The notes beneath the pieces were generated by a model. That model ran no database searches and was not told where the DNA came from. It saw only the letters and a program-made list of their open reading frames with translations. The position numbers and the translations under genes were made by a program. Positions 1-30,392 of a DNA stretch of 41,249 nucleotides are shown piece by piece; position 1 is the stretch's first letter, and every line of letters starts with the position of its first letter. Origin of the DNA: Candidatus Binatia bacterium (GTDB taxonomy: Bacteria; Desulfobacterota; Binatia; JACPRU01); NCBI GenBank assembly GCA_040507895.1, contig JBEVNX010000217.1, positions 1 through 41,249 on the forward strand, given 5' to 3'.

Positions 1-676
1 AGAAGCTGCGCAGTGCGCCGCGCTCGATCAGGCGCAAATACTCCGGTGTCTGCGATCGGATATAGACGATCCCCTGGACGTCAGCCACCGTCAAGACGTG
101 ATCCATGAACTGCGCCGGCTGCAGAAAAGGGGCCAACGGAATGTAGTTGTACGCCCACACCAAGACTACCCAGAGATGTGCGCCGACGAACGACGTGATG
201 AGGAAGCTCTTGGTCTTCATCAACGTCCAATCCAAGATGATTCCCGCGCACACCGTTGAGATCGGCCACACGAAATTCATCGGATAGGCCTCTGCCACAT
301 GCCAATTGAAGTAGCGCCCGATCCAGGCGCACATGAAGAAGCAGACAGACGTGTAGGTGGCTCCCGTCGGGAATCGCCAAGCTACCCACTGAATGTACTG
401 CAGAGCTGATGGAATGATGATGGTGGCAAAGGCCGTGATCACCGGCCACCACTGAGGGTCCTTCCAATCCGTCCAGAAGTCCCAGTCGCCCGCGAACAAT
501 TGCTTCGTGATGTCCGCAGCCCCTCCAACGACGAAGATGGCCGTGACCCAAAACACGAGGTCCCAGCTGCGATCGATCCATTTATACGGCTTCTGCAGCA
601 GTGCCTTGAGCTCGAGCCGCTTCTGGATCTCAGCGGCGTCGGCAATGGCTGCTACCGTGCCTGCTTCTGTGGCCAT
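1..676 (-). CDS. pmoA: CuMMO subunit A (PmoA/AmoA/HmoA family), 3' end truncated by window edge
   Basis: Not in ORF track. Manual translation from ATG at 676 (RBS GGAGG): MATEAGTVAA...FAGDWDFWTDWKDPQWWPVIT...RFPTGAT...WIGRYFNW...YPMNFVWP...YIRSQTPEYLRLIERGALRSF, open to position 1. GDWDFW.DWKD and TPEY.R.IE.G.LR.F are AmoA/PmoA hallmarks. Confidence 0.95.
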   Translation of the reverse strand, partial: MATEAGTVAAIADAAEIQKRLELKALLQKPYKWIDRSWDLVFWVTAIFVVGGAADITKQLFAGDWDFWTDWKDPQWWPVITAFATIIIPSALQYIQWVAWRFPTGATYTSVCFFMCAWIGRYFNWHVAEAYPMNFVWPISTVCAGIILDWTLMKTKSFLITSFVGAHLWVVLVWAYNYIPLAPFLQPAQFMDHVLTVADVQGIVYIRSQTPEYLRLIERGALRSF

Positions 677-754
677 GCCTCCTCTCCTCCTCTAGGAACG
701 CTTCGCGTGCCGCGGAAACAAGGCGAGTTCTCGTCCTTGCCGGCCGTCAGTGGA

Positions 755-1603
755 CTAGTCCGCCACGATGTGTGGCCGGAGGGGAGCGCTTGCATTCGCT
801 GCTTCTTCGGCTTTTTCGATCTCGAGCAGTCGCAGGATGGTCTCCCCCCACACGGCGAACATGCCACTGGCGAGCCATCCGTAGACGATGAACGGCCAAT
901 GGAACGGTACCGCGAAGATCTCTTCGGAGATCCACAAGCTATGGCCCCACTCATTGGCGGCGACAGCCATGCATTCGAGCACGGCAGCGCTGATCAGCAG
1001 GAAGAAGGACCAGGGAAAGCCCTTGTCTGCGCCGTAGACGGCGGGGATACGGAATCGGCCGTAGAGGTAGGCCCCTACGGCGAGTATGGAAGAGAGCGGA
1101 AAGAAGAAGTAGAACATCGGAATGTGCGTTGGAGTCAGCGCGGTGTCCCGCACCATGGTCTGATGCCAAGAGCCGTCCCAGTTCGGCCAGAAGCTGGCTT
1201 CCATGTAAATCGAGAGACTGGTGATCCCCACGATGCTCCATAAGATGGCGATCCGCCGTATCTCTTCCGCGCGCTCGCAGGGTTTGCCGACCATGGCGCG
1301 TCCCGTCCGGATGAGCCATCCGAACCAAGCGCCGGCAAACACGCCCAGCGTGATCAGTTCCCCCCAGAACAGGGAACGGTAGTAGCGAGAGAATTCCACA
1401 CTCGCGGAGTTCAGTCCGGCCGAGAACATGAAATTGTAGTTCCAGAACCAGAGAAAGACATCGGCCGCGATGACCAAGGCGGAGCCCCAGAGCAATGGCT
1501 TCCACCCTACCGTCCAGTGAGTCGGCTTGACGGAACGTACGTTCGTCGTCGTGGTCTGGCCATTTTCCTGAAGCGCTCGGCGCACTGCTTGTGATTGAGC
1601 CAT
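755..1603 (-). CDS. pmoC: CuMMO subunit C (PmoC/AmoC family)
   Basis: Motifs DGSWHQTMVRDTALTPTHI..FY and NEWGHSLWISEEIFAVPFHWPF; several TM helices; RBS AAGGGGAG; directly upstream of subunit A. Confidence 0.95.
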   Translation of the reverse strand: MAQSQAVRRALQENGQTTTTNVRSVKPTHWTVGWKPLLWGSALVIAADVFLWFWNYNFMFSAGLNSASVEFSRYYRSLFWGELITLGVFAGAWFGWLIRTGRAMVGKPCERAEEIRRIAILWSIVGITSLSIYMEASFWPNWDGSWHQTMVRDTALTPTHIPMFYFFFPLSSILAVGAYLYGRFRIPAVYGADKGFPWSFFLLISAAVLECMAVAANEWGHSLWISEEIFAVPFHWPFIVYGWLASGMFAVWGETILRLLEIEKAEEAANASAPLRPHIVAD

Positions 1604-1615
1604 GAGTGCTCCCCC

Positions 1616-2386
1616 TTAGGCGAATCTGTTGGACCGTCTCGATGCCCATGCCGCCAGCGACTCGTTTGGTCGGGCGGCCGCATAGTAGCGAATGACGGAC
1701 ATCGCAATGAGCGCGAGCAATCCGACGACGAGCAACGAGGGCACCAACATTGCTCGATACCACGCCGCTACGCGAATGGGAAAAACCAGCACATCCGATT
1801 TGCCCTGGCCTCCCATTTCAAGCAGGACACGCACCCGGTAGTCGTTCCCTTCGTTCAGAAGAGCTTCCGTGTCGGCGACTCCGAGCTCATACGTCTTCGC
1901 CGGAAGCGACAAGACGGTCTGCGACTGACCCGAGAGTGCCGTTTCAATCACTTCGAGGCTCACAGGCGTTTGCCGCAGCTCGCCAGCAGTGAAGTCCACG
2001 ACCACGATCGTTTTCCCGGCACGCGGAACTTCTTCACAATACTCGCCGGCAGGGTCGAACTGCGGTTGATAAAGGGTGAGATGAAGGAGGGAATTTCCGA
2101 TCTGTCGTCGGCAAGGGTCGTCGGGTCCTCGATCTCGATGCGCCCACGCTTCGACAGTCGTGAGCCAGCCGACCACCGCGAGGATGATGACACAGCGGAC
2201 CCCGAAGCTGCCCCAAGGCATCTGCACGACCCACGCCGCGCTCCGGCGCATTCTGGGCGCGGAGAGCCGTTCCCGCTCGGCCGGAACGAGGTCCCGAACC
2301 AGGAGGCTCCGGTGCTGCTGGCTGCCGTCCGGGATGATCAGCAGCTGTCCAGCGATGCACCGCAGAAGCTGACCGAGGAATGCCAC
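1616..2386 (-). CDS. pmoD: PmoD/AmoD-like periplasmic accessory protein with C-terminal membrane anchor (true start uncertain)
   Basis: Signal-like segment ending AWA-H, then H...DDPC...LHLTLYQP...EYCEEVP..GKTIVVVD and a C-terminal TM helix; ends 12 bp before pmoC. GTG at 2386 has GAGGAG upstream, but a later ATG (MPWGSF) is also possible. Confidence 0.8.
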   Translation of the reverse strand: MAFLGQLLRCIAGQLLIIPDGSQQHRSLLVRDLVPAERERLSAPRMRRSAAWVVQMPWGSFGVRCVIILAVVGWLTTVEAWAHRDRGPDDPCRRQIGNSLLHLTLYQPQFDPAGEYCEEVPRAGKTIVVVDFTAGELRQTPVSLEVIETALSGQSQTVLSLPAKTYELGVADTEALLNEGNDYRVRVLLEMGGQGKSDVLVFPIRVAAWYRAMLVPSLLVVGLLALIAMSVIRYYAAARPNESLAAWASRRSNRFA

Positions 2387-2638
2387 GACCTACTCCTCGC
2401 GCACCGTTTGTAGACAGGAACCGCAAGCTTGCCCACCGCGGCCCTCGCGGAGGGCAGCTTCCGGTGGAATCGGCACTCCCGGACCAGGGTTTGCGGGGTC
2501 CCATTTCGAGTTATCGCCACCGCTTCCGTTTCCATAGCTGGATGGCCTTCTCGTCGCGCTCCGACGCTCGCCCTAGAGCTCCAGCGCACGCGGCGCGCTG
2601 GATTTCCCGTGGTCAGCGGCGACCATATGTTCCGCCCC

Positions 2639-2685
2639 TGGCACTCTGCTTGTCTTTTGTCAATCTTTTTCAAGCCTTGCATTCA
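2639..2685. promoter_or_regulatory. AT-rich divergent promoter region between the CuMMO operon and the GMC dehydrogenase
   Basis: Perfect TTGACA on the minus strand (2663-2658) without a clear -10; imperfect sigma54-like TGGCAC-N5-TTGT on the plus strand (2639-2653). Confidence 0.35.
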
Positions 2686-2863
2686 GCTGCTCATGGGAGT
2701 TTGATCAGGCGGCCGGAACACCCGTGCCTGTAGCTTCGATCCAAGACGACGGAGACTTTCACGATGTTTTCCGCCTGCTCGAAGACCTGCCCGAGTCGAG
2801 GAGCGAGAGCCGGCATGCCTGGTTGAGATGTGGCTCGGTGGTCGAGAGGAAGGGACCCACCTC

Positions 2864-3400
2864 ATGAGCGAAAAGGGCATCAATCGCCGTCAATTCCTGC
2901 ACACGAGCGGGCTGGTCGTCGCCAGTGCAGCCGTGGCGAGTGGTGGTGGGCCGCTGTTGTTCCGTCCTTCGATTGCCTGGGCGATGTCGTTCCACACGCT
3001 CGACGAGCACACCGCTAAGACCTTGCTCAAAATGAGTCGCCATCTCTACCCAAGTCAGTCCATCGAGGACGATCAGTACGCGAGGACCATCGAGGGATTC
3101 GATGCGAAAGCCAAGACGGACCGTGCCTTTGCCAAGTTGCTGCAAGACGGTGTCGCCTCGCTCGATCGCGCGGCGCAGGGGAAGTGGCTCGACGCCAATG
3201 ATGAGGTGAGCCTGCAAACGCTGAAAGGCATGGAAGCCACGCCGTTCTTCCAGACCGTGCGCGGCACGCTGATCGGCGCCGACGGTCCCTACAATCTGCC
3301 GGAGGTATGGAAGAAGTTCGGCTATGAAGGCTCGTCCTGGCAATTCGGCGGCTATCTAAGCCGCGGCTTCGGCGACATCACGTGGTTGCCCAAGGATTAG
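2864..3400 (+). CDS. Tat-exported small subunit of a flavoprotein dehydrogenase (gluconate 2-dehydrogenase subunit 3-like)
   Basis: Twin-arginine signal INRRQFL; FFQTVR...Y....VWKKFGYEG motif; immediately upstream of the GMC gene. Confidence 0.8.
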   Translation: MSEKGINRRQFLHTSGLVVASAAVASGGGPLLFRPSIAWAMSFHTLDEHTAKTLLKMSRHLYPSQSIEDDQYARTIEGFDAKAKTDRAFAKLLQDGVASLDRAAQGKWLDANDEVSLQTLKGMEATPFFQTVRGTLIGADGPYNLPEVWKKFGYEGSSWQFGGYLSRGFGDITWLPKD

Positions 3401-3414
3401 CGAGAGAACGACAC

Positions 3415-4983
3415 ATGGCGAAATACGAGCTCACAGACGATGGCGTCGTGGTGATCGTCGGCTCCGGAGCCGGCGGCGGCACCCTGGCGAACGAGCTCTG
3501 CCAGAAGGGCGTGAAGGTCGTTCTCCTCGAGGCGGGGCCGCGTATCGAGATCAACGACTTCGTCAACGACGAATGGCCGATGTTCAACAAGATCGCTTGG
3601 CTCGATAAGCGTACCACCTCGGGCTCGTGGCGCGTGGCGAAGAACTTTCCCAACTTGCCGGCTTGGACCGTGAAAGCCGTCGGCGGAACGACGGTACACT
3701 GGGCCGGCGCTTCGCTGCGCTTCAAGGAGGGGGAGTTCAAGGCGCGAACGGTATACGGCAACATCGCCGGCGCGAACTTGCTCGACTGGCCCATCACGTT
3801 GCCTGATCTGGCGCCGTACTACGAGCGCGCCGAGGACAAGATGGGCGTCACCGGGACCCACGACATTCCCCGGTTGCCCGGGAACAACAACTTCAAGGTG
3901 CTCGCCGCCGGAGCCGGCAAGCTGGGTTACAAGAAAGTTCACACCGGCAACATGGCGATCAACTCGCAACCGCGCGACGGACGGAGCGGCTGCCTGCAGA
4001 TCGGCTTCTGCTTCGAAGGCTGTAAGAGCGGCGCCAAGTGGTCGACGCTGTACACGGAGATCCCGAAAGCAGAAGCCACCCGCAAGCTCGACTTGCGGCC
4101 GCAGAGCCAAGTGCTGCGCATTCTCCACAATGCCAAGGGGAGAGTTTCAGGCGTGGTCTACGCCGACAAGGTCGGCAAGCACGTCGAACAGAAGGCCCGC
4201 GCCGTGTGCGTGGCCGCGAACTCGATCGAAAGCGCGCGCCTGCTGCTCAACTCCGCCTCCAGCACGTTTCCCAACGGCCTGGCGAATTCTTCCGGGCAGG
4301 TCGGGCGGAACTACATGCGCCACATGACGGCGAGCGTCTATGCCGCCTTTCCGCAAGCGGTGCACATGTATCGCGGCACGACGATGGCCGGAATCGTCGA
4401 GGACGAGGCGAGAAACGATCCGGCTCGTGGCTTCGTGGGCGGGTATCACATGGAGACCATCTCGCTCGGTCTTCCGTTTCTCGCGGCCTTTCTGGATCCC
4501 GGAGCATGGGGACGCGACTTCGCCGGATTGCTGGATCAGTACGACAACATGGCCGGGATGTGGCTCGTCGGCGAGGACATGCCGCAGGAGACCAATCGGG
4601 TCACCCTCCATCCGACGGAGAAGGATCCGTTCGGCTTGGCGATTCCGAACGTACACTTCGACGATCATGCGAACGACGACGCCATGCGTGCCCACGCTTA
4701 CAAGCAGGGGTCTGCGGTGTATCAGGCGGTCGGCGCGACGAAAGTCATCGAGACGCCCCCCTATCCCTCGACGCACAATCTCGGGACGAACCGCATGAGC
4801 GAGAAGCCGCGCGACGGCGTCGTCAACAAGTGGGGCCAAACGCACGACATCGCGAACTTGTTTGTTTCGGACGGTAGCCAATTCACCACTGGCGGGGCGT
4901 CGAATCCGACCTTGACGATCGTGGCGCTCGCCATCCGCCAAGCCGAATACATCGCCGATCGGCTAGGCAAGCACGAGATCTGA
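3415..4983 (+). CDS. GMC family FAD oxidoreductase large subunit
   Basis: VIVGSGAGGG FAD fold, VGGTTVHWAG, Cys cluster CLQIGFCFEGC, HNLGTNRM and NPTLTIVALA motifs. Confidence 0.93.
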   Translation: MAKYELTDDGVVVIVGSGAGGGTLANELCQKGVKVVLLEAGPRIEINDFVNDEWPMFNKIAWLDKRTTSGSWRVAKNFPNLPAWTVKAVGGTTVHWAGASLRFKEGEFKARTVYGNIAGANLLDWPITLPDLAPYYERAEDKMGVTGTHDIPRLPGNNNFKVLAAGAGKLGYKKVHTGNMAINSQPRDGRSGCLQIGFCFEGCKSGAKWSTLYTEIPKAEATRKLDLRPQSQVLRILHNAKGRVSGVVYADKVGKHVEQKARAVCVAANSIESARLLLNSASSTFPNGLANSSGQVGRNYMRHMTASVYAAFPQAVHMYRGTTMAGIVEDEARNDPARGFVGGYHMETISLGLPFLAAFLDPGAWGRDFAGLLDQYDNMAGMWLVGEDMPQETNRVTLHPTEKDPFGLAIPNVHFDDHANDDAMRAHAYKQGSAVYQAVGATKVIETPPYPSTHNLGTNRMSEKPRDGVVNKWGQTHDIANLFVSDGSQFTTGGASNPTLTIVALAIRQAEYIADRLGKHEI

Positions 4984-5030
4984 CGTTCGATGGGCGCTAT
5001 TCGGTGACGCTCTCGTCGAGAGAGCTCGAG

Positions 5031-5384
5031 TCACGGCGCGGCAAGCTCCTTCACGTACTGAACCACGCGCTGCACCTGCGCCTCGTTCAAGATGCCCTTG
5101 TAGGAGGGCATGAGGGGCGATTTGCCTACGCTCGGTCCTCCCTCGGTGATGAGCTTGGTGAGGTACACGTCACTCTTGTCCCTTACGATGACGGTCAAGT
5201 CGGGGGGTTTGGGTTGAAGCGACTGACTCGTCGGCCCGTCGCCCTTGCCGCCTGTCCCGTGGCACATCGCGCACGTTTGCTCGTAGAGCTGCTTGGCCTC
5301 CTGCCCGTAGGCCGGAAGGGCAACCACGTGGGTCAGGACGAGTGCGGTGGTCATCCGAGCCGTCTGGAAGAAGCCTTTTCGCAT
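5031..5384 (-). CDS. Monoheme c-type cytochrome
   Basis: Signal peptide, CAMCH heme-binding motif, G.GDGP, distal Met in SPLMP. Confidence 0.9.
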   Translation of the reverse strand: MRKGFFQTARMTTALVLTHVVALPAYGQEAKQLYEQTCAMCHGTGGKGDGPTSQSLQPKPPDLTVIVRDKSDVYLTKLITEGGPSVGKSPLMPSYKGILNEAQVQRVVQYVKELAAP

Positions 5385-5576
5385 TCAAGAAACCCTGATC
5401 ACGAGCCAAAGACCGTCGGATGGAACCCGTTCGAAAGATCTCGAGAGGGATCATCCTAGCTCTGAGGACAGGCGCAGGATAGCCGGCGCACCCGCGCGGG
5501 CGGATCGGCGGCGCGATCGAGCACCTTTTTCCGAACCACAACGTTCGGACCTGCCTTCCCGCGAGGCAATGGCTGC

Positions 5577-6512
5577 TCAGCGCTGCAGCCGGGGCTCCGG
5601 CAGGTCTCTCGGCACCAAGAATTCGAGCGCTTTGGGGTTGATCGTCAGCTCGATCGTCCCAGCCGGCTTCGGCTCTTCACCTTCGCGCGGCCAGACTTTG
5701 TCGTCGATGTGAACCGGAAATCCCTTCCACTCGATCTCGAGGTGCGCGCCCTGCCGGGTCATGAACTCGGCCGGCCATAGGGCCCCCTCCTGCCAGGTCG
5801 CCAGGTGCTCGTGCAGTTTCTCGCGGTCATGATCGTGGACCATCACGACGTCGAACATCCCGTCATCGAGAAGTATGTTCGGCGCAAGGGGCAGGTTCGG
5901 GCCCATGAACTGCGTCAGCATCGCCTCGAACAGCAGGTAGCGCCCCGAGATGTTCTCGCCGTCCAGCGTGCCCTTCACTTCAGTCGCCGGGCAGTTGTCC
6001 AGGTATTCGCGCAGGAGCTGCACCGTGTAGGTAACCTTGACCTCGACGTCGGCGATCTCGGCCATCGTCTCGTTCGCATCGATGTGGGGGACCGCGCGCG
6101 GGAACAGTCCGGTACCGACGCCCTCGATGAAAGACCGTTTGCCCCAGGGACCTTCGGCCAGGCCCGCGTCGAACGGCACGCGCTGCCCCTTCGCCCAGGA
6201 CGCGATCAGCAACGTGATCGGCAGGTGAGCGATGCCGAGCGTCCGCGAGATGTTGTTTGCGGTGCCCATCGGCAGCACCGTGAGCGGGACCTTTCCACCG
6301 ATCACCCGCCGCGCGACTCTCCCAATCGCCCCGTCGCCACCGGCCACGGCGATCAAGTCGGCCTCTTTCTTGAGCGCTTTCGACCAACCGTCTTCCTTGA
6401 CGGACTGGTAGCGCACCTTGTGCCCTGCCTCCTTGATCAGAGCCTCGAGCTGACCGCGAGTCGGTTTAGTCTCGTCGCCCGCTTCCGGGTTATGAATCAA
6501 TGTTACGCGCAA
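5577..6512 (-). CDS. Diacylglycerol/lipid kinase family protein
   Basis: IHNPEAG, AGGDG and LPMGTANN motifs. Confidence 0.88.
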   Translation of the reverse strand: MRVTLIHNPEAGDETKPTRGQLEALIKEAGHKVRYQSVKEDGWSKALKKEADLIAVAGGDGAIGRVARRVIGGKVPLTVLPMGTANNISRTLGIAHLPITLLIASWAKGQRVPFDAGLAEGPWGKRSFIEGVGTGLFPRAVPHIDANETMAEIADVEVKVTYTVQLLREYLDNCPATEVKGTLDGENISGRYLLFEAMLTQFMGPNLPLAPNILLDDGMFDVVMVHDHDREKLHEHLATWQEGALWPAEFMTRQGAHLEIEWKGFPVHIDDKVWPREGEEPKPAGTIELTINPKALEFLVPRDLPEPRLQR

Positions 6513-7453: not shown

Positions 7454-9285
7454 TCACGAACCGCCACGATCGACCGTACTGGCCTCGCGGGTGCGCGCTG
7501 CTCCCGAACGAGCGCCCCCTGCCGAGATGGCCTTCTCGAGGTTCCACGCCGTGTTGATCAAACCGACGTGAGAGAAGGCCTGCGGGAAGTTTCCCGTCAG
7601 ACGTCGAGCGCTCGGATCCCATTGTTCGCTGAGGAGACCCACGTCGTTGCGCAAGCGGAGCAGGCGCTCGAAGAGCTCGCGGGCCTCATCGAAACGCCCT
7701 TGGAGCGCGAGGTTGTCCGCCAGCCAGAACGTGCAGATGATGAACAGCCCTTCCCCAGGCGGCAATCCGTCCACCCGTTGGTGCGTCCTGTACCGAGCGA
7801 CGAGGCCGTCGACGAGCAGGCGCTCCTGCACCGCTCGCACCGTCCCGAGCATGCGAGGATCCGTCGCCGGCAGAAATCCGACCAACGAAAACAAGAGCGA
7901 GCTCGCATCGACGTCCTTCGCTCCGTAGTACTGCACGAACGAGCCGAGCTCGGCGTCGAATCCCTCGCGAAGCACTTCTTCGCGAATCGTGTCGGCGAGC
8001 GACACCCAGCGATCGAGTTGTCCCGCACGCCCGCTTCGGACGGCTCTCACCGCGCGGTCGACCGCGACCCACGCCATCACCTTGGAGTGCGTAAAGTGGC
8101 GCCGGGTACCGCGTACCTCCCAGATGCCCTCGTCCGGCCGCTGCCAGTCGGACTCCAGGAATCGAACCATCGCCGCCTGCACACGCCATGCATTCTCGCT
8201 CGGCTCGAGGCCGACTCGCGCGGCGAAATCGATCAAGCCGGCGACCTCGCCGCCGATGTCCAGCTGTCGCTGAGCGAACGCGGCGTTGCCGATGCGCACT
8301 GGACGCGCGCCCTCGTAGCCGGGAAGCCAGGGAACGTTGAACTCGGTCAGCCGGCGTTCGCCGGCCAGGCCGTTAGACGGTCTGAGTTTCGGACGGCTTA
8401 CCGGCGACTGCGCGCAGCAGCCATTCCCGCCATGCGCGGGCCTCCTTGACATAGCCGCCGATCATCAGTGCATGCAGCGCAAAGGCGGCGTCGCGGAGCC
8501 ATAGCGATAGTCCCCATTGCGCATGCCGCCGAGCTGCTCGGGAAGCGAGGTCGTCGCCGCTGCGCAAATGCCTCCCGTGGGTGCGTACGTGAGCGCTTTG
8601 AGGGTGATCAGCGAGCGCTGCACCGCGTCCCGCCATGCGCCCTCGTAGCAGCAGCGTTCGGACCAGTCTCGCCACCAGTCCTCGGTCTCCCGCAGACTAT
8701 CGAGCGAATCCCGGGGCGCAGGCGCGCGTAGGTGAGATGGGTACCAGGTCAGTGTGAATGGCACTCGCTCGCCGGCTCGAACCGAAAAGTCGGCGCACGT
8801 TTGGAAGTTCTCGCCTCGGAGCTCGACATCGGTCGTGAAACGGATGGTCTCCGGACCGGCGGTGGCGCGGATGCCCCCGTCGATGCGGCGGACCCAGGGG
8901 GACGACCGAGCCATAGTCGAAGCGGATCGCTAGCTCCATCCTCGTCGTCACCTGTCCGCCGAGTCCCTCGACGATGCGGACGAGGTCAACCGCCTCCGAT
9001 CGCGGAGGCATGAAGTCGATGAGGCGCACCGCGCCAGTGGCGGTCTCGTACTCGGTCTCCAGCACGAGCGTTCCCGGCCGGTAGGGCTCGCCGAGTCGCC
9101 GACACACGATTGGCCGCTGGGGGCCAGCATCCATCGACCGTGCTTCGGAGAACCGAGCAGCGCGGCAAAGCACGCCCCGGAGTCGAACCGAGGCAAGCAC
9201 AGCCAGTCGATCGACCCGTCGCGCGCGACCAGAGCGGCCGAATGGCAGTCGCCGTTCAGCGCGTAGTCTTCGATCCTGGAGGCAT
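7454..9285 (-). pseudogene. Glycoside hydrolase family 15 (glucoamylase/trehalase-like), multiply frameshifted
   Basis: Consecutive GH15 motifs lie in different frames: RIEDYALNGDCHSAALV..DGSIDWLCLPRFDS; TLVLET..RFDYG; AAATTSLPEQLGG.RN.DYRY; WLRDAAF; PDEGIWEVRG..HFTHSKVMAW..GNFPQAFSH. The likely ATG at 9285 is itself out of frame. Confidence 0.88.
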
Positions 9286-9373
9286 TCTTCGGGTTCAATC
9301 GGTATGAACCGCGGAGCGCGGGCGGCGTCGCGAGCGTCTTCGCGACCCTCGCCGACATCACGTGTTTAGGGCG

Positions 9374-16209: not shown

Positions 16210-17085
16210 TCAAAAGCGCCCGGGCCGACGCCGTTGCGACCGCTTCGCAGGCGGGCCGCTCACCCGCGTCGACTGCTGGCCCGTATACACCAGTGCCACG
16301 GCTGCTTCCGGCAGCAAGGCTCGGAAGGTCAGGCTCTCCAAAAGGTACAGCTTCACGGTCGCGGAGTCGTGTGAATCATAGCCGACCGAAAGGTCCTGCC
16401 CGACCGTCAGCTCGAAGAATCCCGGCCGCGTCCCGAGCACGACCGCGCCGTCGACGGCGGGCGCCCAAATCGCGGGGCCGTCGAGGAGCTTGTGGACGAG
16501 CTCCATCACCGGCCAACCGCCACGCGCGGTCGCTTGCATGAGCCCTGCAAAGCAGCGCGGTCCGAGCGCGATCGCGTACGGCCCGTCGACGCCGACAGCG
16601 CGCAGCACGCGCGTCGCTTCCGCGACCGTGCCGGGGTACTGCTCGTAGCTCTCGGAGATGGGGAGCGCCGAGTGGGGGCTCGCCTCGCAGATGCCGCGGA
16701 TCTTACCCGCTGCGTAACCCTGGAACACGACCTCATCCTCGGCGTGGGCGATCCGAGTCGCCGCTGCGATCAGTGGCTCGAGGTCCGCGTCTGCCGCGCC
16801 TCGGCCGAATGCGTCGAGCTCGGCGCGCGCCAGCTCGAAGGTCGTTCGCAATTCGATGAGGGGCTGGACGACACGCAACGCCGCCTCGACTCCCTGCTTC
16901 GGGCCCGAAGGAAGCGGTTGCAGACGGCCGACGTTGACGGCGCCACACTTCCAGCCGAGCGGCCCATGGAAGTCCACCAGACGGCGCGCGGCGAGGTTCG
17001 CTTTCAAAACGCGCGTCGCCTCGGCGTCGAGAGCCGACCACGCGTCCGAAGAGATCGGCGCCAGCTCGCGATGGAGATCGTTCAT
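16210..17085 (-). CDS. Family 1 encapsulin shell protein (Linocin M18-like)
   Basis: MNDLHRELAPIS..AW......A......LAARRLVDF.GPLGW, AEDEVVFQGY, GVDGPY, ELTVGQDLSVGY, ESLTFR. Confidence 0.95.
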   Translation of the reverse strand: MNDLHRELAPISSDAWSALDAEATRVLKANLAARRLVDFHGPLGWKCGAVNVGRLQPLPSGPKQGVEAALRVVQPLIELRTTFELARAELDAFGRGAADADLEPLIAAATRIAHAEDEVVFQGYAAGKIRGICEASPHSALPISESYEQYPGTVAEATRVLRAVGVDGPYAIALGPRCFAGLMQATARGGWPVMELVHKLLDGPAIWAPAVDGAVVLGTRPGFFELTVGQDLSVGYDSHDSATVKLYLLESLTFRALLPEAAVALVYTGQQSTRVSGPPAKRSQRRRPGRF

Positions 17086-17447
17086 CGATCGTTCCGTAGG
17101 CTACCGATGCCCAACGAGCCGTCGCCGGTCGAGGCTTCGGCGGCCTCGACCTCCCTTTCCCTGTCGACGATCGAGCCCTCGGAGAACAGATAGAGGCGAA
17201 GCGCCGACTCGATGGCGGAGTCTCTCCGCCGCAGCCATTCGAGCACCATCGCGGCGTGCTCCTTCTCCTCGTCGCGGTTGTGCGCGAGTATTTGCTTCAG
17301 CTCCACGTCCTCGGCGGCATCGATTCGTTGATCGTACCAGTCGATGGCCTCGAGCTCCTCCTGAAGAGAGGAAAGAGCGCGGTGGCGATCCATCGTTGCG
17401 CGGTCGAGACGATCCTCGGCTTCGTGAAGCCCGACGCTGTTGGCCAT
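17082..17447 (-). CDS. Encapsulated ferritin-like cargo protein (EncFtn/Flp) with cargo-loading peptide
   Basis: HRALSSLQEELEAIDWYDQR...HNRDEEKEHAAM.LEWLRR; C-terminal DGSLGIGSLR targeting peptide; ATGA overlap with the shell gene. Confidence 0.95.
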   Translation of the reverse strand: MANSVGLHEAEDRLDRATMDRHRALSSLQEELEAIDWYDQRIDAAEDVELKQILAHNRDEEKEHAAMVLEWLRRRDSAIESALRLYLFSEGSIVDREREVEAAEASTGDGSLGIGSLRNDR

Positions 17448-17508
17448 GGTCAGTCCTTTCTTCCCGGCGTCTCAAACCCGAAACGCCGATGCGGTGGCGC
17501 TTCGAGAC

Positions 17509-17534
17509 GTAACCTCATCCTGTCCCAGTGTTCA
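17509..17534. promoter_or_regulatory. Symmetric ECF-type element between the divergent SOD and encapsulin operons
   Basis: Plus strand GTAAC-N16-GTTCA; minus strand TGAAC-N16-GTTAC. Confidence 0.55.
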
Positions 17535-17560
17535 GACATATCGTGAATGAGGAGACAGCC

Positions 17561-18187
17561 ATGGCCAACGATTCATATCGAGTGAAAGAGTTCAACCTTT
17601 CTGGGTTGACCGGCATCTCCGATAGGACCCTCGAGACCCACTTCAAGCTCTATGAGGGCTACGTCAAGGAGACGAACCGGCTCAACGAGAAGATCTCCGA
17701 GCTCATTCGGCACGGCAAGGTCGATCGCGAAGAGATGCCGGAGTATTCCGAGCTCACCCGGCGCCTGGGGTTCGAGTACAACGGAATGACGCTTCACGAG
17801 TACTACTTCGGCAACCTACGGCGCGGCGGCTCCGGCGACCCGGAGCGCACTTCGCGTTTCGCGAAAGCCGTTCGGTCGTCGCTCGGCAGCTATGCGATCT
17901 GGAAGGCGGAGTTCGCCAGCATCGGTCAAATGCGCGGCGTCGGCTGGGCGATCTGCTACGAGGATCCCGAGAACGGCCGGCTCTCGAATCACTGGATCAC
18001 GCTGCATGAGGTCGGCAACGTCGCGGGCTTCCGGCCGATTCTGGTGATGGACGTCTGGGAGCACGCCTATCTGCTCGATTACAAGCCCTCGGAGAAGAAC
18101 AAGTACATCGAGGCGTTCTTCGCCAACATCGACTGGGGGGCGGTCGAAGCACGGCTCGAAGCCGGCGGTACCCGACGCGCCGCTTAG
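17561..18187 (+). CDS. sod: Fe/Mn superoxide dismutase family protein
   Basis: ETHFKLYEGYV, LHEYYF, GWA, MDVWEHAYLLDY; RBS GAGGAG. Confidence 0.9.
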   Translation: MANDSYRVKEFNLSGLTGISDRTLETHFKLYEGYVKETNRLNEKISELIRHGKVDREEMPEYSELTRRLGFEYNGMTLHEYYFGNLRRGGSGDPERTSRFAKAVRSSLGSYAIWKAEFASIGQMRGVGWAICYEDPENGRLSNHWITLHEVGNVAGFRPILVMDVWEHAYLLDYKPSEKNKYIEAFFANIDWGAVEARLEAGGTRRAA

Positions 18188-18530: not shown

Positions 18531-21209
18531 ATGGTCACGTCGAACGCGAACCCCGGTCGGCTAGTCCGCTCGGCGACATACCGCGTTCAGCTCCGCGCCG
18601 ACTTCACCTTCGACGATGCCGCCGCGATCGCGGACTATCTCGCCGCACTTTCGATCAGCCACTTGTACTGCTCGCCGTACTTGCAGGCGGCCCCGGGCAG
18701 CACGCACGGCTACGACATCGTCGATCATTCCACGCTGAACAAGGAGCTCGGCGGTGCGCCGGCGCACGCTCGTTTGGCGGAGCGCCTCGCCGCCATGGGT
18801 CTCGGCGAGGTGCTGGACATCGTTCCGAACCACATGGCTTTGGCCGGTCGCGCCAACTCCTGGTGGTGGGGGGTGCTCGAGAACGGCCCATCGAGCCGCT
18901 ATGCCGTGTACTTCGACATCGACTGGAACCCGCCGGACCCGAGACTTTCCGCGACGGTGCTCGTGCCGGTTCTCGGCGACCACTACGGCCGAATGCTCGA
19001 GGCAGGAGAGCTCAGGATCGAGCGCGAAAATGGCTCGTTCGTCGTACGCTACCAAGATCACGAGGCGCCGCTCTCACCACGGAGCCTGGACGATCTTTTG
19101 GACCGAGCGGCCGATGAGGCAGGCTCCGCGGAGCTCGGGAGTCTCGCTCGTGCGTTCGGCGATCTGCCCCACGCCGTGCTGACGCATCCCGATTCCGTCG
19201 AGGAGCGCCATCGCGGCAAGGAATTCTTGCAACAACGGCTGGCGGAGCTCTGCGAGGCTCGCCCGCACGTAGCGGCGGCGATCGACGGCGTGATCGACCG
19301 CATCAACCACGATGCAGACGCGCTCGACGCGCTACTGCGTAGGCAAAACTACCGCCTCGCATACTGGCGCACCGCCAGCGAGGAGCTTTCGTATCGCCGA
19401 TTCTTCAACATCGACACCTTGGTCGGTCTGCGGATGGAGGACGTACGAGTGTTCGCCGATACGCATCGGCTGATCCTCGACCTCGTCGCCGGGGGAATCG
19501 TCGACGGATTGCGTATCGACCACGTCGACGGGCTCCGCGATCCGGAGACCTACCTTCGTCGACTGCGCAACACCTCGGAAAGCACCTACGTGGTGGTGGA
19601 GAAGATCCTCGAGACCGGTGAGAGATTGCCGGAATCGTGGCCCGTGGCAGGGACGACGGGGTACGACTTCCTGAACCGGATCAACAATCTGTTCATCGAC
19701 TCGAGGAACGAAGCGGCGCTCAGCGCTTGCTACGTTCGCTTCAGTGGTGGAAACGACGACTACCGGGACATCGCGTACCGCGCCAAGCTGCAGATCATGA
19801 GGCAGGAGCTAGCGGCCGAGGTCGAACGTCTCACCACGATCTTGGCAGACATCTGCCACAATCACCGGCGGCATCGCGACCACACTCGTCGGGATCTGCG
19901 AGACGCGCTGCGCGAAGTCATCGCCGCTTTCCCGGTCTACCGGACGTACGTCCAGCCCGGCGGGCGCATCAGCGATTCCGACCGCATCTACGTGCAAACA
20001 GCCGTTTTTGGCGCCCAACAGCGGCGTCCGGACCTGGACGGAGAGCTCTTGAGCTTCATCGGCGAGCTGCTCGTCCTCGCCCACAGCGGGAGTGCCGAGA
20101 CCGAGTTCGCGTTGCGCTTTGCTCAGCTCACTCCGCCCGTCATCGCCAAGGGCGTAGAGGACACGGCATTCTACCGCTACCATCGCCTGATTTCTCTCAA
20201 CGAAGTCGGCGGCGATCCGTCGCTCTTCGGCGCACCCCTCGAGGACTTCCACCGCGCGACGGCCGAAGCAGCCGAGCGCTGGCCGGAGGCGATGCTCACG
20301 CTCTCTACGCACGACACCAAGCGGAGCGGTGACGTGCGGGCGCGGCTCAACCTCCTCTCCGAGCTCCCGGACGCATGGGAGCAGGCGGTACGGCGCTGGA
20401 CGGAGCGGAACGAGGCGCGCAAACGGGGCGAATGGCCCGACGCCAATACGGAGTATCTACTCTATCAAACTCTGCTCGGGGCGTGGCCGATCACGGCAGA
20501 GCGCGCCCGAGCGTTCATGGCGAAGGCGACCAAGGAGGCCAAAGTCCACACGTCCTGGATCAATCCGAACCCGGAATACGACGAAGCGCTGCAGCGGTTC
20601 GTGATGGACGTGCTCGGCGACCAAGACTTCGTCGCCGACCTCGAGGGTTTCCTCCGCGAACACCGCCTCGTCGAACGCGGGCGGATCAACTCGCTTTCGC
20701 AAACCGCGCTGCTGCTCACCTGCCCGGGCGTTCCCGACATCTACCAGGGAACCGAAGTCTGGGACTTTTCGCTGGTCGACCCCGACAACCGCCGAGCCGT
20801 CGACTACGACTATCGGCGCCGCCTGCTCCAAGATCTCTCCGGGGCGGGCCCCGAAGTGGCGCTGGACAAGGCCGAGGAAGGCGGACCGAAGCTGTGGCTG
20901 ATTCACCGCGTGCTCGGCCATCGGCAACGGCATCCCCGAGCGTACGGGCCGTCCTCTCGCTACGAGCCGCTTCGCGCCTCGGGTGCGAAAGCGGAACACC
21001 TCGTGGCGTTCGAGCGTAGCGGCGGTCTCGTCGTTCTCGTTCCCCGCCTGCTCGTGCGACTCGGTGATGATTGGAACGGCACGACCGTCGCACTCCCGCG
21101 CGGGGCGTGGGTCAACATCCTCTCCAACGAATCCGTAGACGGCGGGGATGTCGCCGTCCGCGCTTTCCTCCGTCGGTTTCCCGTGGCCGTGTTGGCCCGT
21201 GACGACTGA
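18531..21209 (+). CDS. treY: Maltooligosyl trehalose synthase
   Basis: ATYRVQL, GSTHGYD, DIVPNHM, YRRFF, GLRIDHVDGL, AKGVEDTAFY, STHDTKRSGDVRAR, LVDPDNRR. Confidence 0.97.
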   Translation: MVTSNANPGRLVRSATYRVQLRADFTFDDAAAIADYLAALSISHLYCSPYLQAAPGSTHGYDIVDHSTLNKELGGAPAHARLAERLAAMGLGEVLDIVPNHMALAGRANSWWWGVLENGPSSRYAVYFDIDWNPPDPRLSATVLVPVLGDHYGRMLEAGELRIERENGSFVVRYQDHEAPLSPRSLDDLLDRAADEAGSAELGSLARAFGDLPHAVLTHPDSVEERHRGKEFLQQRLAELCEARPHVAAAIDGVIDRINHDADALDALLRRQNYRLAYWRTASEELSYRRFFNIDTLVGLRMEDVRVFADTHRLILDLVAGGIVDGLRIDHVDGLRDPETYLRRLRNTSESTYVVVEKILETGERLPESWPVAGTTGYDFLNRINNLFIDSRNEAALSACYVRFSGGNDDYRDIAYRAKLQIMRQELAAEVERLTTILADICHNHRRHRDHTRRDLRDALREVIAAFPVYRTYVQPGGRISDSDRIYVQTAVFGAQQRRPDLDGELLSFIGELLVLAHSGSAETEFALRFAQLTPPVIAKGVEDTAFYRYHRLISLNEVGGDPSLFGAPLEDFHRATAEAAERWPEAMLTLSTHDTKRSGDVRARLNLLSELPDAWEQAVRRWTERNEARKRGEWPDANTEYLLYQTLLGAWPITAERARAFMAKATKEAKVHTSWINPNPEYDEALQRFVMDVLGDQDFVADLEGFLREHRLVERGRINSLSQTALLLTCPGVPDIYQGTEVWDFSLVDPDNRRAVDYDYRRRLLQDLSGAGPEVALDKAEEGGPKLWLIHRVLGHRQRHPRAYGPSSRYEPLRASGAKAEHLVAFERSGGLVVLVPRLLVRLGDDWNGTTVALPRGAWVNILSNESVDGGDVAVRAFLRRFPVAVLARDD

Positions 21210-22945
21210 TGCACGAGTTTCGCGTCTGGGCACCGCGGCCCAAGCGGGTCGATCTCTTGCTCGGCACACGACGCCTCCGTATGGAGCCGTTCACTCGCGG
21301 GTGGTGGCGCCTCGCCGTCGAGGACGCAGCGCCAGGCACGGACTACACCTTCAGTCTGGACGGCGGGCCGCCTCGGCCCGATCCCCGCTCGGCGTTCCAG
21401 CCCTCCGGCATCGACGGTCCTTCGCGGCTCGTCGACCACGACGTCTTCGAGTGGCGAGACGGCGGCTGGAGAGGCGTGACCCTCTCGGGAGCCGTCCTCT
21501 ACGAGCTCCACGTGGGCACGTTCTCGGCAGCGGGCACGTTCGACGGCGCGATCGAGCATCTCGAGCACCTCGTAGCGCTCGGCGTCGACATCATCGAGAT
21601 CATGCCGGTCGCGGAATTCTCGGGTGACCGAGGTTGGGGCTACGACGGGGTAGACCTCTTCGCTCCTCATCACCACTACGGCGGTCCTGATGGGCTCAAG
21701 CGCCTGATCGACGCTTGCCACGCGCGGGGGCTGGGAGTGGTCCTGGACGTCGTCTACAACCACCTCGGCCCCGCCGGAAACTACTTGGCAGAGTTCGGTC
21801 CCTACTTCTCCGATCGCCACCGAACGCATTGGGGCGAGGGCGTAAACTTCGACGGGCCCGGCAGCGAGGAGGTGCGCCGCTTCGTGATCGACAATGCGCT
21901 CATGTGGCTGCGGGACTATCACTGCGATGGGCTGCGCCTCGACGCGGTGCACGCAATCGTGGACGAGTCGGCGACGCACGTCCTTGAAGCGCTGGCAGCC
22001 GAAGTCGGCGCCCTCGCTGCCCACTTGCGGCGGCCACTCTCGCTCATCGCCGAAAGCGATCGCAACGACCCGAAGCTCGTGCGTAGCCGCGACGCGGGAG
22101 GCTTCGGTCTCGACGCGGCATGGGCCGACGAGTGGCACCATGCTCTGCATGCGGTCCTGACGGGCGAGCGCGGCGGGTACTACGCGGATTTCGGTTCCAT
22201 TCCACTTCTGGCCAAGGCGCTTCGCCAGGCCTGGGTCCATGATGGCATCTGGTCGGAGTACCGCCGTCGCGTGCACGGGCGACCGCCAATCGGTCTGTCC
22301 GGACGACAGTTCGTGATTTCCATCCAGAACCACGACCAGGTCGGGAACCGCGCGGCCGGCGAGCGCGCAACCAGCTTGATGAACGACGGGCGACGGCGGG
22401 TCGCTGTCGCCTTGCTCCTCACCTCTCCCTTCGTGCCGATGCTCTTTCAGGGTGAAGAATGGAGCGCCAGTACGCCGTTTCAGTATTTCACCGACCACGC
22501 GGACCCGGAGTTGGCTCGGACGGTCAGCGATGGGCGCCGAAGCGAGTTCGCAGCATTCGGCTGGAAACCCGAAGACGTCCCCGATCCGCAGGACCCTGCT
22601 ACGTTCGAACGATCGAAGCTCGATTGGTCCGAAGCTACACAAGGCGCGCACGGCGATCTGCTCTCCTGGTATCGAGAGCTCATCGCCTTGCGCCGTCGCA
22701 TCCCGGATCTCAGTGACCCGCGTCTCGATCGCATCGAGACACGCTGCGATGAGGCAGGCGGAGTGTCGATCGAGCGCGGACCCGTGACGGTGGCGGTCAA
22801 CTTGAGCTCTCGTAGCCGCGCGATCGAGCTGAACCCTCGCGCCGAGCTCGTGGCCGCCTCGTCAGTGGACGTGGAGCACACCGGCCAGCGGATCGTGCTG
22901 CCGCCGGACACTGTCGCCATTCTCGTCGACGAGGCCGCGCCATGA
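21209..22945 (+). CDS. treZ: Maltooligosyl trehalose trehalohydrolase
   Basis: FRVWAP, YELHVGTF, WGYDGV, DVVYNHLGP, GLRLDAVHAI, QNHDQVGNRA, PDPQDPATF; TGATG coupling to treY. Confidence 0.97.
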   Translation: MHEFRVWAPRPKRVDLLLGTRRLRMEPFTRGWWRLAVEDAAPGTDYTFSLDGGPPRPDPRSAFQPSGIDGPSRLVDHDVFEWRDGGWRGVTLSGAVLYELHVGTFSAAGTFDGAIEHLEHLVALGVDIIEIMPVAEFSGDRGWGYDGVDLFAPHHHYGGPDGLKRLIDACHARGLGVVLDVVYNHLGPAGNYLAEFGPYFSDRHRTHWGEGVNFDGPGSEEVRRFVIDNALMWLRDYHCDGLRLDAVHAIVDESATHVLEALAAEVGALAAHLRRPLSLIAESDRNDPKLVRSRDAGGFGLDAAWADEWHHALHAVLTGERGGYYADFGSIPLLAKALRQAWVHDGIWSEYRRRVHGRPPIGLSGRQFVISIQNHDQVGNRAAGERATSLMNDGRRRVAVALLLTSPFVPMLFQGEEWSASTPFQYFTDHADPELARTVSDGRRSEFAAFGWKPEDVPDPQDPATFERSKLDWSEATQGAHGDLLSWYRELIALRRRIPDLSDPRLDRIETRCDEAGGVSIERGPVTVAVNLSSRSRAIELNPRAELVAASSVDVEHTGQRIVLPPDTVAILVDEAAP

Positions 22946-25614: not shown

Positions 25615-26472
25615 ATGAGCGTCGGCAGAAGCACCACCCGAATTCCCGAGATCGTTCGCGACCACGAGCAAGATCTGCTCTCGAGATGGGTCAGCAACCA
25701 GATGGCCACCTCGAGCCTGCGTCCGGGCTTGATGAGCGAAAGCGATCTCCGCGATCAGTCGAGGAAGTTCCTCGGCTTTTTTCGCGCCGGGCTACAGAGC
25801 CAAGACGGGGTACTCGACGTCGATACCTCGGGCTGGAGCGAGGCTCGCGAGCTGCTGGGCGACATCTCGAAGGTCCGCGCCCGACAGGGATTCACCCCGA
25901 GCGAGACCGCCACCTTCGTGTTCTCGCTCAAGCAACCGCTCTTCGAACGGCTTCGGGTCGCATATGGCGAGGACGTCGACGGATTCGCCCGGGAGACCTG
26001 GACGGCGACGGTGCTGCTCGACAAGCTCGGCCTCTTCACGACCGAAGTCTTTCAGAAGGGGCGCGAGGAGGTGATCGCGCTCCAGCAGCAGGAAATGCTC
26101 GAGCTGTCCACTCCGGTGGTGCAGCTCTGGGAAGGCATCTTGGCTTTGCCCTTGATCGGCACCCTCGACAGCGCCCGCACGCAAGTCGTGATGGAGAGTC
26201 TGCTGCAAAGGATCGTCGACACTGGCGCGCAGATCGCCATCATCGACATCACCGGCGTGGCGACGGTCGACACGCTGGTCGCCCAGCACCTGCTGAAGAC
26301 CATCGCCGCGGCGCGGTTGATGGGCGCCGAATGCTACATCAGCGGCATCCGGCCGCAGATCGCGCAGACGATCGTTCATCTCGGCGTCGAGCTGAACGAC
26401 GTCGTGACGAAAGCGACGCTCGCCGATGCGCTGCGCATCGCGGTGGAGCGTAGCGGATTCAAAATCGTATAA
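25615..26472 (+). CDS. rsbR: Stressosome scaffold RsbR (N-terminal globin-like domain plus STAS)
   Basis: RARQGFTPSETATFVFSLK; ELSTPVVQLW...LPLIGTLDSAR; IDITGV..VDT.VAQHL; GIRPQIAQT. Confidence 0.93.
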   Translation: MSVGRSTTRIPEIVRDHEQDLLSRWVSNQMATSSLRPGLMSESDLRDQSRKFLGFFRAGLQSQDGVLDVDTSGWSEARELLGDISKVRARQGFTPSETATFVFSLKQPLFERLRVAYGEDVDGFARETWTATVLLDKLGLFTTEVFQKGREEVIALQQQEMLELSTPVVQLWEGILALPLIGTLDSARTQVVMESLLQRIVDTGAQIAIIDITGVATVDTLVAQHLLKTIAAARLMGAECYISGIRPQIAQTIVHLGVELNDVVTKATLADALRIAVERSGFKIV

Positions 26473-26503
26473 GGCCTGCTTCGATCGCTTGAGCGGGAGC
26501 TCG

Positions 26504-26893
26504 ATGGAGCGCATTCCTATCCTGCGAATGGGCGACTGCCTGCTCGTGACGATCCAGGTCGACATGCACGATCGGCTTGCGCTGACGCTGCAAACCGACC
26601 TCACCGAGCGGATCGCGGCGACTCGCGCCAAGGGGGTGCTCATCGACATCTCGGCGCTCGAAGTCGTCGATTCGTTCATCGGCCGCGTCCTCGGCAACAT
26701 CGCGGCGATGTCCCGTGTGCTCGACGCCAGCACAGTGGTGGTCGGCATGCGTCCGGCGGTGGCGATTACGCTCGTGGAGCTCGGGCTCTCCTTGCCCGGG
26801 ATTCGTACGGCGCTCGACGTCGAGAAAGGCATGGAGCTCATCCGCGCGACCCTTGCACGGCCGACGAGAACCAATGGCCGTCTTAAGGCATGA
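26504..26893 (+). CDS. rsbS: Stressosome STAS protein RsbS
   Basis: MERIPIL...IDISALEVVDSFI (phospho-Ser site)...GMRPAVAITLVELG. Confidence 0.95.
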   Translation: MERIPILRMGDCLLVTIQVDMHDRLALTLQTDLTERIAATRAKGVLIDISALEVVDSFIGRVLGNIAAMSRVLDASTVVVGMRPAVAITLVELGLSLPGIRTALDVEKGMELIRATLARPTRTNGRLKA

Positions 26894-30390: not shown

Positions 30391-30392
30391 TC

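Follow-up and report, generated by a model that had tools for sequence, protein, structure and literature searches.

Copper membrane monooxygenases (CuMMOs) of the Binatota fall into two clades with the gene orders CAB, CAxB and CAxxB, where x is a small additional gene; pmoD was reported in five of eleven genomes and two CuMMO copies in two genomes (Murphy et al. 2021, PMC8262859). The 'Actinobacteria/SAR324-type' enzymes of that study correspond to the 'Putative pmoA Binatales' clade, described from 81 metagenome-assembled genomes (MAGs) and placed with the hydrocarbon monooxygenases (HMOs; preprint 10.64898/2026.02.02.703227), and Binatota are also listed among HMO carriers in PMC12533140. 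Here we analyze a CuMMO operon of this lineage at the left end of a 41,249-nt stretch (the window, used below for its full length), which is contig JBEVNX010000217.1 (contig C1) of the Candidatus Binatia bacterium assembly GCA_040507895.1. Measured against the published description, nothing essential differs in the window, and the CAxB order, the presence of pmoD in some genomes and the two copies per genome agree with our findings. That the PmoD-type gene D stands first, that x is near-universal and that both are absent from the sister clade is not stated in the text of Murphy et al.; Figure 2c and the supplements may show some of it. No published text stating the D-first order was found by a search that covered neither figures nor supplements, and the text seen of Diamond et al. 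2022 (PMC9038741) contains nothing on pmoD or Binatia.

Four further described systems bear on the locus. The hmoCAB genes of Mycolicibacterium chubuense NBB4 (pMYCCH.01, NC_018022.1), with relatives in Rhodococcus sp. WAY2 and Mycobacterium dioxanotrophicus, belong to the same half of the CuMMO family, share the order of C, A and B, and have an alcohol dehydrogenase gene (mdo) nearby. They differ in that A and B are adjacent, in forming a separate clade and in having neither a PmoD-like nor an x-like gene in any of the three loci; no GMC dehydrogenase is annotated within 5 kb on each side in NBB4 and WAY2 or within 4 kb in M. dioxanotrophicus. Canonical pmoCAB/amoCAB-D operons, including a second operon of the same genome on contig C11, have homologous A, C and D genes and likewise place C before A, but their D follows B and they lie in the opposite half of the tree. 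The pXMO system (pxmABC; Methylomagnum ishizawai plasmid NZ_AP019784.1) is likewise a divergent CuMMO co-occurring with a canonical copy; it differs in its A-B-C order, where the window has C and then A, and in the position of PxmA in a separate clade of the other half. Finally, the C3 cluster of Methylacidiphilum sp. IT6 (gmcAB, gloA, pmoCAB3, pmoD; PMC8630023) combines a CuMMO, pmoD and a twin-arginine (TAT)-exported two-subunit GMC dehydrogenase, as the window does. This is a likeness of context only. In IT6 pmoD follows pmoB, the enzyme belongs to another branch of the family, and beside the window operon there is neither a glyoxalase nor a lactate dehydrogenase gene.

We are highly confident that the left end of the window is the 5' part of a D-C-A-x-B operon for a Binatia-type CuMMO of the HMO half of the family, cut by the contig end inside A. 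The operon is genuine but truncated and belongs to a type already described, in which PmoD usually leads. The genes at this end of the window, with the number of amino acids (aa) of each product, are as follows.

1..676, minus strand: A-like subunit gene (pmoA/hmoA), open reading frame (ORF) 2..676, 225 aa, 3' end open where the contig end cuts the gene
677..754, minus strand: spacer between C and A, 78 nt
755..1603, minus strand: C-like subunit gene (pmoC/hmoC), 282 aa, complete
1616..2251, minus strand: PmoD/AmoD-family gene, first in the operon ('D1'), 211 aa counted from ATG 2251, start uncertain
2252..2827, no strand: non-coding stretch between D and the divergent dehydrogenase genes, its role read from position only
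2828..3400, plus strand: small subunit with TAT export signal, partner of the GMC flavoprotein, 190 aa
3382..4983, plus strand: GMC-family flavin adenine dinucleotide (FAD) dehydrogenase, large subunit, 533 aa
5031..5384, minus strand: small c-type cytochrome, 117 aa, convergent to the GMC gene

The PmoD-, PmoC- and PmoA-like genes stand in tandem on the minus strand, as proposed in an earlier note made from the sequence alone; Pfam matches to AMO and AmoC and a sequence match of D to the solved PmoD chain 6cpd_A confirm these assignments. Only 12 nt separate D from C, and with the 78-nt spacer the operon genes are tightly packed. The A gene was missing from the ordinary ORF list, as the same note had remarked, because the contig end cuts it; it is listed once ORFs running off the end are allowed.

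The matches of A, C and D to Pfam families and solved structures are far beyond chance. Subunit A matches Pfam AMO (PF02461) with an E-value of 1.1e-51 and 176.5 bits (cut-off 27.5) as well as solved PmoA, and subunit C matches AmoC (PF04896) with an E-value of 1.9e-42 and 145.8 bits (cut-off 26.7) and the PmoC chain 3chx_C with 1.7e-38. The blocks WHQT..RDT..TP.H and NEWGH...P.H of C align with 3chx_C and with the canonical copy of C on contig C11, and their residues D153, H160, N217, H221 and H235 are invariant among 24 relatives. In particulate methane monooxygenase (pMMO), these Asp/His and Asn/His/His blocks of subunit C bear the metal ligands. Both subunits miss the NCBIfam equivalog cut-offs. 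Subunit A, whose partial protein aligns over 192 of the 234 model positions, reaches 189 where 290 is required and 161.2 where 318 is required (TIGR03080/NF041557), and the complete C scores 159.7 against 319 and 136.6 against 280.6 (TIGR03078/NF041641).

Phylogenetic placement was obtained from a maximum-likelihood tree of 44 A subunits in which the named HMO anchors were taken from a plasmid collection; a homology search from the Lentzea protein retrieved no characterized HMO. The tree divides into two halves with support of 100/99. The first contains Methylococcales, Methylogaea, Methylocapsa, Skermanella, Cycloclasticus, Methylacidiphilum, the PxmA of Methylomagnum (A-B-C order) and the C11 copy from the window's own genome. 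The second, the HMO half (28 rows, 100/99), includes window A and the HmoA of NBB4. Within it, NBB4 HmoA forms a 4-row clade of its own with Rhodococcus and M. dioxanotrophicus (100/99), outside which the window lies, while window A sits in a 9-row Binatia clade (100/99) that is nested in a 16-row clade (100/100) together with Lentzea, Carbonactinospora, Egibacteraceae, Dormibacteraeota and Caldinitratiruptor. Identity of window A to the A subunit of pXMO (M. ishizawai plasmid) is 38.5%. The window enzyme is therefore not a pMMO, ammonia monooxygenase (AMO) or pXMO and belongs to the hydrocarbon-monooxygenase half of the CuMMO family. Divergence from pMMO, AMO and pXMO, as the earlier note had claimed, is borne out by the missed equivalog cut-offs and by the split in the A-subunit tree. 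The characterization as deep-branching and unknown is wrong, because this Binatia CuMMO lineage is already in print (PMC8262859; 10.64898/2026.02.02.703227).

Gene order was surveyed in relatives by tblastn, with D, C and A of the window and C, A, B and D of contig C11 as protein queries, on 80 genome loci, which came from a scan of one genome per species and have A subunits 73–96% identical to window A. By these probes the loci read DCAB (27 loci), DCABD (27), CAB (19) and DCA (2); the frameshifted orders DCABB, DDDCABBB and CABBB occur in one locus each, as do AB and CA. D precedes C in 58 of the 80 loci, or 58 of the 76 in which the contig reaches far enough upstream, and a profile search for D in the 80 loci found nothing beyond the tblastn hits. 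D is lacking in 22 loci: in four of them the contig breaks off at or within C or A, another offers no more than 556 nt before C, and the remaining 17 (L069-L085) make up the most remote subclade. In 77 of the 80 loci A is followed by B, and the other three contigs stop less than 600 nt past the matched portion of A. The small gene x, not mentioned in the earlier note, sits between A and B; with a profile made from 26 of its copies it is detected in 79 of the 80 loci, the exception ending just after A; in the closest locus, L006, x lies at 7811-8185. The x protein starts with a signal peptide whose predicted cleavage site carries an invariant A-H; it further has a short G-P-D-E-L-G-P-P-like stretch, one membrane helix ending in W-P and a basic tail, and it may be a fourth subunit. 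The full operon in relatives is D-C-A-x-B. In the 27 loci with the order D-C-A-x-B-D (e.g., L025:9471-14289), a second PmoD paralogue, 'D2', whose mature end begins with H-G-G, follows B.

Both accessory genes are specific to the clade. Using a sister-clade alignment we retrieved 80 metagenome loci, of which 51 represent the sister clade, with A 57.5–69.1% identical to window A. There, x is found in none of the 49 loci having both A and B, D is found upstream in none of the 29 loci with more than 1 kb before C, and a D match anywhere in none of the 51. In the other 29 metagenome loci A is 76–85% identical to window A; here x occurs in 23 of 25 loci, and 10 of 18 have D upstream. Because D and x are clade-specific, the D-first order is both normal for the window's clade and a derived trait. 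PmoD at the head of the operon is the norm here, a finding that the earlier note had itself named as one that would count against its reading.

Protein D has no Pfam or NCBIfam family, and the ESM Atlas returns only 'hypothetical protein' clusters for it, none with a Pfam family. Against solved structures, however, D hits the Methylocystis sp. Rockwell PmoD (6cpd_A) with an E-value of 3.5e-09 and both cysteines aligned. Two hydrophobic stretches, residues 8-38 (signal-peptide-like, ending A-W-A before H38) and 161-193 (C-terminal helix), enclose a soluble, predicted periplasmic cupredoxin-type domain with the motif C-x9-H-x14-C; the signal peptide was judged by eye and from hydropathy. Residues A37, H38, C47, H57 and C72 are invariant in 30 homologues, H38 standing directly after the predicted cleavage site. 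The family is defined by a signal peptide, a periplasmic domain with two conserved cysteines and a C-terminal helix (Fisher et al. 2018, PMC6189053), and from its predicted features window D belongs to it. With the Rockwell PmoD (PDB 6CPD) it has these elements and the location in a CuMMO operon in common; it differs in preceding pmoC instead of following pmoB, in its C-x9-H-xn-C motif and in the invariant histidine after the cleavage site. According to the same study, CuA forms only in PmoDs with C-x7-M-x-H, whereas C-x9-H PmoDs bind copper without CuA features. Window D lacks the CuA-forming motif C-x7-M-x-H-xn-C, having no methionine two residues before the histidine: its C47 and H57 align with Cys41 and His51 of Fisher et al., with leucine in place of Met49. 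The spacing C-x9-H-x(10-20)-C recurs in 56 of the 58 upstream D proteins, the two exceptions being truncated or frameshifted, and the 27 downstream D2 genes and the D of contig C11 are likewise of the C-x9-H type.

Window D is 81% identical to the D of L006 and 34% to the PmoD-like gene after amoB/pmoB on C11; the genome has only two PmoD homologues, one per operon. That D is a spurious long ORF was considered and rejected, as the protein is conserved, matches PmoD and has a single paralogue in the genome. In 15 loci (L019 at 4771-6024, L020, L023, L024, L026, L028, L033, L038, L045, L052, L053, L054, L062, L063 and L068) the D frame runs on to 381–478 aa. The extra part of the L019 protein, the one locus scanned against Pfam, is a Sco1/SenC copper-chaperone-type domain (E-value 3.6e-19), which ties D to copper handling. 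At its longest the D frame of the window is 1616..2386 (256 aa); later candidate starts are ATG 2251, GTG 2227, which is the start used by the ESM Atlas record, and ATG 2221, and the true start is probably one of these three.

The left edge of the window is a contig end in an assembly of 254 contigs and 3.54 Mb that is 82.5% complete. The A gene is present as the first 225 of about 267 codons; the A of L006 has 267 aa and is 96% identical. A DNA contig of 863 nt from another sample (run X2) covers positions 2-833 without difference and extends 31 letters past the edge, and on the minus strand the ten codons beyond the edge stay in frame and match residues 226-235 of the L006 protein. The first base of the window (a) differs from the run X2 contig, which aligns from position 2; the codon is leucine either way, and the probable cause is a silent variant or an error at the end of the assembly. 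We conclude that the rest of A, x and B lie on unassembled or unbinned DNA left of the window edge, in keeping with the earlier expectation of missing genes beyond it, since the run X2 contig continues A in frame and B follows A in nearly all relatives. The shortest contig of the assembly measures 4.2 kb, so x and B may have dropped out on some short fragment.

The sole match to PF04744 (B) in the assembly belongs to the second, complete CuMMO operon at C11:1019-4406 (loci L001 and L004), which has the order C-A-B-D and whose proteins exceed the NCBIfam AmoA/B/C_BACT and TIGR0307x cut-offs. Identities of window A, C and D to the C11 copies are 45%, 34% and 34%. As a source of the 'missing' B of the window operon, C11 was rejected because it is a complete C-A-B-D unit of a different clade. 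The C11 A is 86% identical to a metagenome protein and 57–63% to its next relatives, the named ones among them (57–61% identity) being gammaproteobacterial and other PmoA-type proteins; from the literature, this operon may be the 'TUSC'-type Binatia copy.

By record title, 47 of the 80 loci are Binatia, Binataceae or Binatota, 23 carry delta-proteobacterial labels and 10 carry others, some of them plainly wrong; the delta-proteobacterial label is an older placement of Binatia (preprint 10.64898/2026.02.02.703227). Three loci (L013, L014 and L015) carry a Binatia-type operon under 'Klebsiella pneumoniae' or 'uncultured Enterobacteriaceae' MAG titles, and these records are almost certainly mislabelled. 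The closest locus, L006, has flanking genes in common with the window and with contigs C110 and C148 at 85–88% DNA identity, and we therefore take the host to be a Binatia bacterium. Near-identical DNA also occurs in soil metagenomes, where five runs from three studies, with the likely source excluded, hold at least half of the sampled words. In RNA libraries, contigs identical to the window cover 357-498 and 469-626 (run X16) and 550-761 (run X17); the latter, of 212 nt, spans the C-A spacer from the end of C to the start of A. These contigs are a weak hint of expression and of C-A co-transcription.

Divergent from the operon lie the genes of a putative exported dehydrogenase. The TAT signal of the small subunit is recognized by Pfam (E-value 4.2e-04) and by TIGR01409 (21.3 bits, cut-off 16.7), and the large subunit carries GMC_oxred_N and GMC_oxred_C. 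It resembles the large subunits of membrane-bound FAD dehydrogenases for glucose and fructose with E-values of about 1e-52 to 1e-50, the nearest solved proteins being FAD glucose dehydrogenase 6a2u_B (4.4e-52) and fructose dehydrogenase 7w2j_A. In this genome the GMC gene is single-copy except for one 28% paralogue. In 40 of the 80 loci the CuMMO genes have a GMC orthologue no more than 7 kb away, which is upstream on the same strand, downstream or divergent; the small-subunit gene stands beside the CuMMO genes in 37, and in 29 a cytochrome gene (Pfam Cytochrom_C, Cytochrome_CBB3) accompanies the small-subunit and GMC genes. The cytochrome c is likely the electron acceptor of the GMC dehydrogenase. 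In locus L025 the operon is flanked by an Fe-type alcohol dehydrogenase upstream and by a multicopper oxidase and a pyrroloquinoline quinone (PQQ)-type alcohol dehydrogenase after D2; in L071, B is separated from the cytochrome/GMC set by a Zn-type alcohol dehydrogenase, and the flanks also include a sigma-54 activator. The operon context points to oxidation of an alcohol-like product.

The stretch 2252..2827 between the divergent units, with no convincing ORF that has a family match, presumably holds the promoters of both, judging from its position. A sigma-70 promoter scan of window positions 1-3000 gave 0 sites, Rfam had no match in 1-6000, and the two terminator-like hits, both inside pmoC, are not above the 1.9 expected from shuffled sequence. 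The G+C content of positions 1-2000, which hold the CuMMO genes, is 0.59 against 0.61–0.69 across the remainder of the window, in agreement with the proposal in PMC12533140 that HMO genes have spread horizontally.

From what is known of the family, A, B and C would form a membrane enzyme whose copper centre, held by C, would use O2 and two electrons from the quinol pool to place one oxygen atom into a small uncharged substrate. The HMO of NBB4 supports growth on C2–C4 alkanes (PMC13058606, PMC12533140), and by analogy a C2–C4 alkane or alkene is our first guess at the substrate, one to which we give slightly less than an even chance. The role of PmoD remains poorly understood (PMC13058606); membrane-anchored and periplasmic, D would bind copper without CuA and may serve copper supply or enzyme assembly rather than catalysis. 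An alcohol or hydroxy-ketone product would then be oxidized in the periplasm by the TAT-exported GMC flavoprotein, which, judging from the conserved linkage, may pass electrons to the small cytochrome c. For operon identity and mechanism taken together we put the chances at about even. Several points weigh against this explanation. The operon's own B and x are not in the assembly, so the complete enzyme is an inference from relatives; the 82.5%-complete assembly contains no second B, no x and no remainder of A. No member of the window's clade has a measured activity. Branching among the clades of the HMO half is drawn open (85/78), which leaves loose the relation of the window's clade to that of NBB4, and window A is only 42–44% identical to NBB4-type A subunits (42% to NBB4 HmoA itself). 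Since NBB4-type loci are without D, x and GMC genes, function may have shifted between them. The GMC gene is missing within 7 kb in 40 of the 80 loci, and RNA libraries can carry contaminating DNA. The genome also has two PQQ methanol/ethanol-family dehydrogenases above the NCBIfam cut-off, which leaves room for C1 metabolism. Lastly, the closest published cluster of CuMMO, pmoD and two-subunit GMC genes oxidizes acetone, not alkanes (PMC8630023).

Ketone oxidation is therefore kept as a close rival to alkane oxidation, on account of the IT6 gmcAB-pmoCAB3-pmoD cluster and the results on its PmoD, although we consider it unlikely. The enzyme would be an acetone/butanone monooxygenase like PMO3 of Methylacidiphilum sp. 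IT6, converting acetone to acetol, with the GMC dehydrogenase taking acetol to methylglyoxal and 2-propanol to acetone and PmoD assisting. In IT6 the C3-induced cluster comprises the large and small GMC subunits, pmoCAB3 and pmoD (Awala et al. 2021, PMC8630023), PMO3 turns acetone into acetol and does not act on methane or propane (PMC8630023), and expression of the IT6 PmoD enables another pMMO to form acetol from acetone (PMC8764830). Window positions 1-4983 hold the same three components, namely a PmoD gene, the CuMMO genes, and a GMC large subunit together with its TAT-bearing small subunit, again in context only; the GMC linkage in half of the related loci agrees with this, and the Zn-type alcohol dehydrogenase of L071 would fit a route from 2-propanol through acetone to acetol. 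However, the Methylacidiphilum A, whichever of that organism's three copies it is, falls in the other half of the tree, no glyoxalase or lactate dehydrogenase gene lies near the operon in the window or in three scanned loci, and the 27 D-C-A-x-B-D loci have no GMC gene within 7 kb. A more far-reaching version, which we regard as speculative and quite doubtful, has a five-part copper machine (D1, C, A, x and B) that evolved from an ancestor with C-A-B alone. In this version x would act as a genuine fourth membrane subunit, its mature protein beginning with an invariant histidine as in PmoB's histidine brace; D1, which some species have as a fusion with Sco1, would work with Sco1 as a dedicated non-CuA copper donor; and the job would have changed to ketones or oxygenated volatiles such as acetone, together with the GMC dehydrogenase.

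Oxidation of methane by an uncultured, possibly atmospheric, methane oxidizer appears improbable. Murphy et al. 2021 leave methane open and report methanol dehydrogenase homologues in five of nine such genomes (PMC8262859), and the two PQQ dehydrogenases of this genome would suit such a metabolism; yet window A lies outside every verified PmoA clade in the tree and below the pMMO/AMO equivalog cut-offs, and the 'Putative pmoA Binatales' clade has been placed with hydrocarbon monooxygenases in a preprint that also finds the methanol-oxidation and C1-assimilation modules incomplete or missing in TUSC-carrying Binatia MAGs (10.64898/2026.02.02.703227). If any enzyme here oxidizes methane, the canonical-type C11 copy is the better candidate. 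Hardly any credence attaches to ammonia as the substrate. CuMMOs generally co-oxidize ammonia (PMC8262859) and the top-scoring NCBIfam models are AmoA_BACT and AmoC_BACT, but the scores (A 189 against 290, C 159.7 against 319) are far under the cut-offs and window A stands far from the pMMO/AMO half of the tree. The name AmoA_BACT itself says little on ammonia because NCBI applies it to methanotroph PmoA as well. The PmoA proteins P0349, P0352 and P0441 of Methylococcales, Methylogaea oryzae and Methylocapsa palsarum are named 'bacterial ammonia monooxygenase, subunit AmoA' by NCBI. It is also very improbable that the stretch is a dead or mis-binned fragment, that is, an operon truncated without B or a foreign contig, as the stop at the contig end, the lack of a second B in the assembly and the lower G+C of the first 2 kb might suggest. 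All three frames are open and keep the residues that are invariant in relatives; contigs from two other samples match with zero or with one to five differences each, and one of them extends A; the 41-kb contig shares flanks at 85–88% DNA identity with L006, which has the complete operon; and the assembly is only 82.5% complete and has no contig below 4.2 kb.

Binatia are widespread in soils, and their CuMMO genes are caught by pmoA surveys and read as methane oxidation. Placement of the window enzyme in the HMO half, together with a second, canonical copy in the same genome, helps to keep such surveys honest. Less explored is the accessory set of a leading D and a histidine-first x, conserved in the clade and absent from its nearest relatives; because of this absence, the clade offers a natural comparison of CuMMOs with and without PmoD.

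Elsewhere in the window, three consecutive ORFs on the minus strand (7454-8452, 8465-8914 and 8948-9361) match glycoside hydrolase family 15 or a trehalase-like N-terminal domain and have the appearance of a single glucoamylase/trehalase gene that frameshifts or stops have broken up. At 16210-18187, on the minus strand, an encapsulin shell gene (Linocin_M18, E-value 6.5e-84) has a gene for an EncFtn-like ferritin cargo directly upstream, and a divergent Fe/Mn superoxide dismutase gene adjoins the pair. Three alpha-amylase-family genes (892, 578 and 702 aa, the last with a CBM48 domain) stand in a row at 18531-25050 and resemble what we take to be TreY/TreZ/GlgX-like genes for making trehalose from glycogen. 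The region 25615-31973 holds a stressosome-like set, in which RsbR-type and STAS proteins are accompanied by a fusion of a kinase-like ATPase with a SpoIIE phosphatase and by two hybrid histidine kinases.

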